64,000 nt of DNA from the IMG/VR virus record IMGVR_UViG_3300035676_000001; one strand, given 5' to 3'. The notes beneath the pieces were generated by a model. It had not been told where the DNA came from. It did no database searches and worked only from the letters and a program-made list of their open reading frames with translations. This DNA is from a virus. Lineage: Duplodnaviria; Caudoviricetes. This document shows positions 5,734-7,824 of the stretch, piece after piece. A program made the translations under genes and the position numbers. Within the stretch, counting starts at the first letter, position 1. The number at the start of each line of letters is the position of its first letter.

Positions 5734-5979
5734 TTATTTTTTAATTCTATTACAAATGTCCGACATTATTGACTTTTCGTTTGCAATAATGTAGTTAAGA
5801 CCATTCTTTCTAATCTTAATATATTTATTCTTTAACAAATCTGATTTATTGGATTGAATTTCCTTATCAAGTGCAAAGTAAAAATACTTGATAAAATCAT
5901 TGAAAACATCTTTTGGTCTTGACTTTTTGGTTGTAAAAATATCAAGAACATTATTAAGGAATGCTTGAAGGTCTTTCAT
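5734..5979 (-). CDS. Hypothetical protein
   Basis: ORF track; ATGA coupling to upstream gene. Confidence 0.7.
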   Translation of the reverse strand: MKDLQAFLNNVLDIFTTKKSRPKDVFNDFIKYFYFALDKEIQSNKSDLLKNKYIKIRKNGLNYIIANEKSIMSDICNRIKK

Positions 5980-7109
5980 ATCAAAAACATTCCAGGTTGT
6001 GCTTCCAAATAATTTCTTGGATAAAATCTGTACATTTTTCCTGCTGCAGTAGTTGAACTTGCAACTTCCATTTTATATCGTATCTGAATAATCAAATTAC
6101 TATTTCCAGATAATTTTGTTCCATCAGAATTTGAACGATAGATTTCAATTTTTGGGTCTCCCGATGCATTTATTCTAGCATTATATCTAGCGTTTGCAAG
6201 AATATCCCTAAACTGACGGTCGGCAACTCTTGTTTTGACTCTACCATCTCCAGTAAATTTAACAAGTTCGGTATTAACATTTCTAGAAAGACCGTAGATA
6301 ATGTAGTCAGCAAACTTTACTTTGGTATCAGTTCTATCTGGGGTATCTAATCCTTCGTTTAACTTTTTAGCGGCATAAGCATAAACAAGTCTTGCTGCCT
6401 TTTTAAGATATTCACCACCTCCAGTTTCTTTTGCGTTATCTCTAGAGGCATATTTTTTTGTGAATACTTCTTTATCAAAAAATTCATCAATAAAGTTCTG
6501 ATAATTATTAGCAACTGGGGAAACATCTAATCCCATTTCACTAAAGATATTCAAAAATTTATCAAATCCCTGACCAGATACTTGGTGAAATTGCTCACCA
6601 CCATCAACTTTTAATGAGTAATCAATATTCCTAAATCTTTTATCAGGATTTGTTGGAGAATTAACTTCTATCTTAACATCCGCTTTTGTTCCTTTTTGGT
6701 CTTCTGTTCCAGCAGCAGTTACTCGAATAAAATCTTCACGAGCATTGATAGAAAGACCTCTTGCTTGTGCATTAAGTCTACTATGCGAATTTACAAAGGA
6801 TACTGCGCCATTTTTTAAATCAGAAACTTTTGCCCAATTTGTTCTATCAGACAAAAAATCTTGTGCCTTTTTAGGAACGGATACAGATACGGACACTGTA
6901 TCAATTACAGCACTACCAACATCATTAACTTGCTTAACATATCCCTTCTTCATCATTTCCGTCAATACGGTATCAACATCCGAACCAGTAACTGTCGGTA
7001 GAGTCTTAGAAGATTTTGTTTTTGCTCTTTTTACAAATCTAGCGGCAACAGCAGCAGCAAAAAAAACTTCAAACAAATCACCTCTATTAGCTGATATTTT
7101 TTCCGCCAT
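5976..7109 (-). CDS. Hypothetical protein, putative PD-(D/E)XK nuclease
   Basis: NRGDLFE ... KADV ... YSLK pattern; CTAAATA late promoter at 7124-7130. Confidence 0.55.
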   Translation of the reverse strand: MAEKISANRGDLFEVFFAAAVAARFVKRAKTKSSKTLPTVTGSDVDTVLTEMMKKGYVKQVNDVGSAVIDTVSVSVSVPKKAQDFLSDRTNWAKVSDLKNGAVSFVNSHSRLNAQARGLSINAREDFIRVTAAGTEDQKGTKADVKIEVNSPTNPDKRFRNIDYSLKVDGGEQFHQVSGQGFDKFLNIFSEMGLDVSPVANNYQNFIDEFFDKEVFTKKYASRDNAKETGGGEYLKKAARLVYAYAAKKLNEGLDTPDRTDTKVKFADYIIYGLSRNVNTELVKFTGDGRVKTRVADRQFRDILANARYNARINASGDPKIEIYRSNSDGTKLSGNSNLIIQIRYKMEVASSTTAAGKMYRFYPRNYLEAQPGMFLI

Positions 7110-7130
7110 AAGACTTTTTGAAGTATTTAG

Positions 7131-7155
7131 TGCCCAAAAGAGGACTTGAACCTAT
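7131..7155 (-). pseudogene. 3' stub of a disrupted tRNA (T-arm, acceptor 3' strand, discriminator A)
   Basis: AGG-TTCAAGT-CCT-CT-TTTGGGC-A; TTTGGGC pairs with the 5' stub GCCCAAA at 7741-7747. Confidence 0.8.
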
Positions 7156-7163
7156 ATCGACAA

Positions 7164-7246
7164 TGCTCCAGAGAAGATTTGAACTTCCACGCTTTTTAAG
7201 GCGGCGGATTCTAAGTCCGCTGTGTCTACCGTTCCACCACTGGAGC
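7164..7246 (-). tRNA. trnL: tRNA-Leu(TAG)
   Basis: Acceptor GCTCCAG/CTGGAGC-A, anticodon arm GCGGA-CTTAGAA-TCCGC, long variable arm, T-loop TTCAAAT; CCA not encoded. Confidence 0.93.
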
Positions 7247-7690
7247 TAAACAATTTCTATTTGAGAATGTATTAGTTTGTGTATGACAATTAGGACATAA
7301 TAATCTTAAGTTGTCGGGTCTGTTATCATATGGTTGACCGTTAATATGGTCAACTTGTAATCTTAATGGTTTTCCATTCCAAGTAGAAGGAATGCCACAT
7401 TCAAAACAAGTATTACCTATTTCTTCTATTAATAATCTATATAGAATTTCACGCTTACAAGATTTACCTTTTAAAGAAGTATATTCTAAAAGTGTTTTCC
7501 ATTTATTATATCCACCATATTGCCTAATTTTATTAGTATAATCTGGTTTGTAATCGGGAATCCATTTTTTATATCTTGCTCGTAAAGTATCTGGTTTACA
7601 ATTTAATTCTAAACATAATTGAGTTGGTGATACTCCAGACAATAAAGATTCTATTATGTATTCTTTTTTGTCGTCAAGGTCTTTTCTCAT
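7226..7690 (-). CDS. HNH homing endonuclease (154 aa)
   Basis: CFEC...LQVDHING...DN...NLRLLCPNCH; start re-called at 7690 just downstream of a late promoter; stop lies inside tRNA-Leu. Confidence 0.88.
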   Translation of the reverse strand: MRKDLDDKKEYIIESLLSGVSPTQLCLELNCKPDTLRARYKKWIPDYKPDYTNKIRQYGGYNKWKTLLEYTSLKGKSCKREILYRLLIEEIGNTCFECGIPSTWNGKPLRLQVDHINGQPYDNRPDNLRLLCPNCHTQTNTFSNRNCLAPVVER

Positions 7691-7734
7691 AATTGGTAGA
7701 CACGCTGTATTATTTATACAAAATACTACTAATT
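7691..7734 (-). promoter_or_regulatory. Late promoter TATAAATA (7711-7718) in loop of hairpin abutting HNH start codon
   Basis: AATTAGTAG ... CTACCAATT arms (8/9 paired) directly before ATG. Confidence 0.7.
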
Positions 7735-7747
7735 TTACCATTTGGGC
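7726..7747 (-). pseudogene. 5' stub of disrupted Leu-type tRNA (acceptor 5' strand, decayed D-arm)
   Basis: GCCCAAA-TG-GTAAAATTAGTAG begins 4 nt after tRNA-Ala and resembles a Leu-type tRNA 5' end. Confidence 0.72.
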
Positions 7748-7751
7748 AAAG

Positions 7752-7824
7752 TGGAGAATAGCGGACTCGAACCGCTGACATCCTGCTTGCAAAGCAGGCG
7801 CTCTACCAACTGAGCTAATTCCCC
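7752..7824 (-). tRNA. trnA: tRNA-Ala(TGC)
   Basis: GGGGAATTAGCTCAGTTGGTAGAGCGCCTGCTTTGCAAGCAGGATGTCAGCGGTTCGAGTCCGCTATTCTCCA canonical cloverleaf. Confidence 0.97.

Follow-up and report, generated by a model that had tools for sequence, protein, structure and literature searches.

Homing endonucleases at phage tRNA genes

Homing endonucleases residing in the tRNA clusters of phages are already known, among them SegB of T4 and the Heg enzymes of T5. The closest characterised system to the locus analysed here is T4 SegB. According to the part of the SegB report consulted, this protein is a free-standing GIY-YIG homing endonuclease encoded in the T4 tRNA cluster and absent from close relatives, which cuts inside tRNA genes at the TpsiC motif and drives the preferential inheritance of the neighbouring tRNA region (PMC2330249). 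Our locus lies in the window, by which we mean the whole 64-kb stretch of viral DNA that was analysed. Compared with the same part of that report, the cyanophage nuclease gene is similarly located among phage tRNA genes and appears to have moved with a tRNA, and the resident tRNA gene is broken just 5' of the T-arm. Unlike the GIY-YIG enzyme SegB, the cyanophage protein is a putative nuclease of the HNH type. Moreover, the consulted part of the SegB paper mentions no ORF that extends into a tRNA, and no resident tRNA gene that was split and replaced by a cassette-borne one (PMC2330249).

HegA (F-TflIV) of T5/BF23 also resides in a phage tRNA region and shares 35–37% identity with the cyanophage HNH protein over residues 1–146, but it is longer (227 aa), with an extra C-terminal HTH part. 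HegA was rejected as a precedent for the overlap described below: its gene lies after the tRNAs, ORFs then follow and no tRNA is found downstream. The "tRNA-Met" at the HegA match in AY587007 was rejected as well, being an upstream tRNA annotation that overlaps the start of the ORF in one record only.

In the E. coli secG-leuU transcript, a single RNase P cut is made at tRNA +1, and the secG mRNA, which keeps its stop codon plus 14 nt, decays in less than 30 s (PMC2241853). Since this decay takes place without any overlap, an overlap is not needed for coupling. The cyanophage locus shares with secG-leuU the order of an mRNA followed by a tRNA-Leu (co-transcription being putative here); secG-leuU differs in its 14-nt spacer, in the stop codon retained by the released mRNA and in being a cellular housekeeping operon and not a mobile one. 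In the "tRNA punctuation" of mitochondria, coding regions abut or overlap tRNA genes, tRNA excision sets the 3' end of the mRNA, and an incomplete stop codon is completed by polyadenylation. To our knowledge no such stop repair exists in bacteria, where a stop-less end leads to rescue and decay. Integrative elements can restore the tRNA end that they interrupt. As with such elements, the invader described here brings a replacement for a destroyed part of a host gene; unlike them, it brings a whole tRNA gene and leaves both old ends as stubs, and it is the replacement copy, and not that of the host, into which the nuclease ORF extends.

The literature was searched for a nuclease gene with its stop codon in a tRNA, or for a non-stop mRNA made by RNase P, and nothing specific was found, although such an absence is not proof. 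Nor did the search retrieve a paper on a clade that docks in frame at the 5' end of a tRNA gene, borrows a stop codon from its D-arm and, in travelling with that tRNA gene, replaces the one that it breaks.

The HNH gene ends within tRNA-Leu

The window contains an intact tRNA-Leu(UAG) gene without encoded CCA (7164..7246, minus; ARAGORN and Rfam), referred to below as the GCTCCAG type and carried by the cassette. Its first 21 bases (7246..7226, minus) read as the last six codons (APVVER) and the TAG of an upstream ORF of 154 codons encoding an HNH homing-type endonuclease (P0001; 7226..7690, minus; Pfam and homologue alignment). The end of this ORF reads ...TTA|GCT CCA GTG GTG GAA CGG TAG, where the bar marks tRNA +1. 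The Ala codon GCT thus coincides with tRNA bases 1–3 (7246..7244) and the stop codon (7228..7226) with D-loop bases 19–21, while the codon preceding +1 is TTA (7249..7247), at which a sister clade has TAA. The original prediction had placed the HNH stop codon within tRNA-Leu, with 7226–7246 shared (minus strand) and APVVER as the tail; ARAGORN, Rfam and the reading of the ORF agree with these coordinates of the HNH 3' end/tRNA-Leu 5' end overlap to the base.

The tRNA scores 56.8 bits with Rfam model RF00005 (gathering score 29), and its acceptor stem is fully paired (7/7, GCTCCAG/CTGGAGC). Across the HNH-linked tRNAs, compensatory changes are seen at 16 of 20 stem pairs, acceptor pairs 3–7 included. 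Together, the cloverleaf, the long variable arm and this covariation point to a functional tRNA-Leu(UAG). The only other tRNA found in the 64 kb is tRNA-Ala(UGC) (7751..7824, minus; ARAGORN; 73.6 bits with the Rfam tRNA model), which indicates that the tRNA array of this phage is much reduced.

Homologue alignment places the start of the HNH protein at the ATG at 7690 (MRKDLDD) and rules out an upstream TTG located inside tRNA-Ala, with which the ORF had been listed as 7226..7792. Two Pfam families are matched, HNH (28.7 bits, cut-off 21.4) and HNH_3 (27.8 bits, cut-off 24.8). The protein consists of an N-terminal helical, HTH-like part and a C-terminal HNH domain, and residues C95, C98, D114, H115, N123, N127, C132, C135 and H136 are invariant in 37 close homologues. 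This pattern identifies the product as a putative HNH (beta-beta-alpha-Me) endonuclease with catalytic His and Asn and a Cys4 zinc site. The AF2 model has a mean pLDDT of 85, falling below 50 for residues 146–154, and Foldseek against the PDB gave only weak matches for the HNH domain (Cap5, McrA; E ~0.05). The nearest named relatives are the tRNA-region HNH homing endonucleases HegA and F-TflIV of T5/BF23 (35–37% identity), followed by homing endonucleases of jumbo and Streptomyces phages. Sequence searches retrieved no cultured phage with a close copy of either the tRNA-Leu or the HNH gene. MazG, a DnaB/gp41-like helicase and weak DNA matches to Synechococcus myoviruses in the neighbourhood suggest that the window belongs to a T4-like cyanophage.

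The in-frame junction recurs in related loci

IMG/VR was scanned with the HNH protein alignment, yielding 80 loci of 33–100% identity associated with many tRNA types. At all nine close loci (65–100% identity), a tRNA-Leu(TAG) begins in frame at the end of the ORF, while the upstream neighbour varies (tRNA-Ala, tRNA-Arg TCT or tRNA-Arg ACG). The stop codon is a TAG at tRNA bases 19–21 in L001–L005 and a TAA at bases 13–15 in L007–L009; in L006, and also in L138 and L154 from the tRNA scan described below, a TAA lies flush before tRNA +1, as checked at the DNA level. The recurrence of the in-frame junction in every close relative that was found, and in four IMG/VR contigs whose HNH is identical, places it above chance.

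Throughout the 80-locus set, the stop codon falls within a same-strand tRNA at 35 loci and 0–10 nt ahead of one at 13; it is 11–100 nt ahead at 4 loci and more than 100 nt ahead at 5. A further 22 loci have no downstream tRNA in the fetched piece, and at the remaining one the ORF extends past the end of the locus. Hence 48 of the 57 HNH loci having a downstream same-strand tRNA stop in it or at most 10 nt from it. Such a junction was observed for 49 of 378 other long ORFs of the same arrays, including a second HNH, a DUF559-type nuclease and an epimerase. The favoured in-tRNA stops are UAG at bases 8–10 and those at bases 13–15 and 19–21. Annotation pipelines that forbid overlaps between CDS and tRNA will truncate or drop genes of this kind.

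Overlap lengths of 0, 6, 15, 18, 21, 36 and more than 50 nt were found among relatives, a variation that arises because the length is set by where the tRNA happens to offer an in-frame stop codon. Accordingly varied tails were recovered by a search of 5.8 billion proteins: APVVER, ASVVER, ALVVER, ARVV, AQMV, longer read-ins and a 147-aa group ending in ...KKR. Some homologues read in for 12–17 codons, as a D-loop longer by one base puts the TAG out of frame. We built a tree of 37 proteins on the core, tail columns removed. The 147-aa forms with their own stop codon make up one nested clade (10/37), the other 27 read into the tRNA, and two state changes account for this distribution. P0010 and P0014 have an identical core, yet in P0010 the stop codon has been lost again and the protein reads into the tRNA. 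Termination of homologues upstream of the tRNA had been named as an observation that would count against the overlap: it holds for the 10 proteins ending in a TAA just before +1 and fails for the 27 that read in.

The amino acids of the tail track compensatory changes in the tRNA acceptor stem, positions 3–7 of which lie inside the ORF tail. Many homologues carry a tail with similar residues, which is what would be expected if LAPVVER were a functional part of the nuclease and the protein constrained the tRNA-like sequence. We consider this extremely improbable, because the changes follow the pairing of the stem, the tail is disordered in the model, and it is missing in 10 of the 37 homologues and of arbitrary length in others.

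Two loci hold a different, longer ORF in the slot before tRNA-Leu(TAG), L131:4220-4819 and L171:931-1518, stopping 64 and 14 nt short of it, respectively. An N-terminal HTH and an HNH-like HH...N...CANCH were recognised by eye in these ORFs; Pfam reports the HTH in L131 only and nothing in L171.

A cassette with its own tRNA-Leu has probably replaced the middle of a resident tRNA-Leu

A scan of IMG/VR with the core of the tRNA-Leu returned 76 loci. An HNH gene lies flush upstream in 13 of them, 11 with the stop codon at tRNA bases 19–21 and 2 with a TAA abutting +1; about 60 are devoid of HNH and have either another tRNA 0–2 nt before the tRNA-Leu or spacers of 44–184 nt. Comparison of an empty site (L098) with a filled one (L003) puts the end of the insert exactly at tRNA +1. 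When the 3' end of another tRNA-Leu, the GCCCAAA type, was used as query, 33 loci showed tRNA-Ala, 0–3 nt and an intact tRNA-Leu with no HNH (e.g. L163, L159), 3 had a 64%-identical HNH in between (TAA at tRNA bases 13–15), and 4 contigs were identical to the window. Empty sites thus take the form tRNA-Ala, 0–3 nt, tRNA-Leu or tRNA-Arg, 2 nt, tRNA-Leu, and filled sites with identical flanks exist. This presence/absence polymorphism at one site is the behaviour of free-standing homing endonuclease genes, to which the cyanophage gene would belong.

The window itself retains both ends of a resident GCCCAAA-type tRNA-Leu(UAG), recognised by comparison with L007 and L163. A decayed 5' stub (bases 1–22; 7726..7747, minus) begins 3 nt past tRNA-Ala, is identical at 19 of 22 positions to the intact L007 tRNA and has the flank of the empty site L163. 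A 3' stub (7130..7153, minus), comprising the T-arm, the 3' strand of the acceptor and the discriminator, lies 10 nt past the cassette tRNA; it is identical at all 24 positions to the intact tRNAs of L007 and L163, and the flank downstream of it is identical to L163. The anticodon and variable arms of the resident gene are gone. In L163, by comparison, the upstream flank is 97% identical and the downstream bases are the same, and the resident tRNA-Leu is intact with no HNH.

Given the two stubs of the window set against the intact L163 and the HNH-free relatives, the sequences indicate that a complete foreign tRNA-Leu arrived along with the promoter and HNH, the unit replacing the middle of the resident gene. 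The GCTCCAG-type tRNA-Leu is native to another phage lineage and would have been co-transferred with HNH as a flanking marker. The right junction of the cassette, where 10 nt separate the cassette tRNA from the resident T-arm, lacks the form of a clean homologous junction. A mobile element ending at GGTAG and bringing only a substitute 5' part of the tRNA was considered and rejected for the window: the tRNA is donor-type throughout, and the resident gene has kept its two stubs. The nuclease and the tRNA had been predicted to be genetically linked by the overlap. A genetic link is supported by the presence of HNH and the complete GCTCCAG-type tRNA-Leu inside the GCCCAAA-type gene; adjacency alone would also link them. 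Such a cassette offers an explanation for the movement of tRNA genes between phages.

At the same site, L180 has an unrelated insert of 797 nt between tRNA-Ala and tRNA-Leu, where a minus-strand reading frame of 354 codons lies opposite the tRNA-Leu locus and overlaps it.

Predicted expression of HNH and tRNA-Leu

A predicted T4-type late promoter motif, TATAAATA (7711..7718, minus; T4 consensus), is located 20 nt upstream of the ATG. It sits between TTAGTAG (7732..7726) and the near-complement CTACCAA (7699..7693), and both the motif and the inverted repeat TTGGTAG/CTACCAA are conserved in L003–L008 and the window. The expression of homing endonucleases in T4 is controlled at several levels. 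In the T4 arrangement, the start codon is masked on the longer early transcripts, and translation is confined to the late ones. If the HNH start is likewise enclosed in a predicted hairpin, with the late promoter in the loop, early read-through transcripts would probably yield tRNA without translation of HNH.

The junction was scanned for a terminator between the HNH ORF and tRNA-Leu; none was found, nor any spacer. Folding predictions indicate that the tRNA-Leu cloverleaf still forms when set within the HNH 3' RNA. With no terminator and a cloverleaf that folds in this context, an RNase P cut at +1 would take six codons and the stop codon with the tRNA, and we infer that it would leave a stop-less HNH message. 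The original prediction went further, proposing that tRNA production and nuclease production from one transcript are mutually exclusive. This is too strong, as one precursor can be translated first and processed after.

The overlap might also be without effect on expression, if most tRNA-Leu came from an internal promoter of the HNH ORF, or from early transcripts that read through an untranslated HNH. A sigma-70-like site (TTGACC, 17 nt, TATGAT; 10/12 matches; 7353..7325, minus) does lie inside the ORF, about 70 nt upstream of tRNA +1, and early transcripts would go untranslated if the hairpin around the late promoter occludes the start. However, the two hexamers are the conserved codons VDH and YDN, and synonymous changes have abolished them in L005 and L006. 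Moreover, 11 such sites were found against 4.3 expected in this AT-rich region. Furthermore, late transcripts from TATAAATA must still enter the tRNA, as nothing stops them. An absence of coupling therefore seems to us very unlikely.

Assembled Logan contigs from freshwater RNA libraries (X1, X3, X5 and X6) include some that contain an identical tRNA-Leu with HNH-free upstream sequence; the shares in the matching sequencing runs are small, 0.12 or less. One 170-nt RNA-library contig of a relative (11 differences) spans 7187–7308.

Significance of the overlap

We favour, as probable, the reading that the overlap is a tolerated by-product of flush docking and compaction and not a tuned device, a homing cassette having docked on its own tRNA. 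Three observations argue for it: the tail follows the pairing of the tRNA, it is predicted to be disordered, and it is absent in the nested 147-aa clade. In addition, the first 21 bases of tRNA-Leu are the same in HNH-free phages, which argues that the tRNA is not adapted to supply a stop codon. A single change of TTA to TAA would put an end to reading into the tRNA, yet this state is kept in homologues down to about 58% protein identity; this persistence fits neutrality and is also compatible with weak selection for the overlap.

We propose that the ORF belongs to a clade of free-standing HNH homing endonuclease genes living in phage tRNA clusters. In one lineage of this clade, the gene would have become docked, in frame and without a gap, at the 5' end of tRNA-Leu(UAG). 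A D-arm remnant, the late promoter, HNH and the complete tRNA-Leu would move as one cassette, which would have replaced the middle of the resident tRNA-Leu while bringing a working substitute tRNA, so that the invasion may cost the phage nothing. With TTA at -3..-1 in place of a stop codon, the ORF would end at the first in-frame stop of the tRNA, the D-loop UAG, making the seven-residue tail (LAPVVER) a passive read-out of the tRNA sequence. Full-length HNH would be made only from unprocessed late transcripts starting at TATAAATA, early read-through transcripts giving tRNA with HNH untranslated. The cut of host RNase P at tRNA +1 would end the useful life of the message through 3' decay, and ribosomes already on the cut message would undergo non-stop rescue. 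By analogy with secG-leuU, the HNH message would probably be ended by tRNA processing wherever its stop codon lay, inside the tRNA or before it.

The same facts have to be weighed against a selected dose limiter, in which the RNase P cut would produce a non-stop HNH mRNA and tmRNA-tagged products that are degraded, capping a toxic nuclease in inverse relation to tRNA maturation. Read-in is indeed the majority and apparently older state (27/37 proteins) and recurs on many tRNA types (35/80 loci), no terminator or spacer separates ORF and tRNA, and the late-promoter hairpin would fit the multi-level control of homing endonucleases in T4. That RNase P in E. coli does cut an mRNA free of the tRNA that follows it also speaks for this possibility, but there the cut alone already destabilises the mRNA without an overlap (PMC2241853). 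A limiter is moreover difficult to reconcile with an overlap length left unconstrained from 0 to more than 50 nt, with a 147-aa clade that thrives on its own flush TAA and of which one member has reverted, or with the identity of the first 21 tRNA bases in HNH-free phages, where the tRNA shows no adaptation to give a stop. The longer ORFs of L131 and L171, which occupy the same slot and stop 64 and 14 nt before the tRNA, point in the same direction. We consequently regard such a limiter at this locus as unlikely, and its extension to a selected self-limiting device common to many tRNA-docked nuclease genes, with RNase P maturation as timer, as quite unlikely.

If a self-limiting device did exist, nuclease output would be wired inversely to the processing of the element's own tRNA. 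If, as in the by-product reading that we prefer, the overlap is neutral, it is still a tidy example of compaction in which a structured RNA supplies a stop codon. Natural alleles with overlaps of 0, 15 and 21 nt make it possible to ask whether the expression of a potentially toxic gene is limited by processing of the tRNA downstream of it.

Other conserved elements near tRNA-Leu

Many relatives without HNH have a conserved element of some 60 nt, gatagagggtaag...ccttatgaggtat...cttactccatct, in the spacer that precedes tRNA-Leu. The gatagagggtaag element was found about 80 nt before tRNA-Leu in L094, L098, L105, L107, L091, L136 and L115, and upstream of HNH in L003. Its sequence resembles an inverted repeat, and it may represent a small RNA or the relic of a tRNA. 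Another conserved spacer, ttgacaatcaaac...gattgtc, also an inverted repeat, occurs about 39 nt past tRNA-Leu in L003–L005, L008 and L009 and is followed by tRNA-Gly(TCC). In the window, a late-promoter-like CTAAATA (7124–7130, minus) adjoins the 3' stub ahead of ORF 7109..5976. This ORF encodes 377 aa without Pfam match and is conserved in T4-like cyanophages (DNA matches to Syn19 and S-RIM8).
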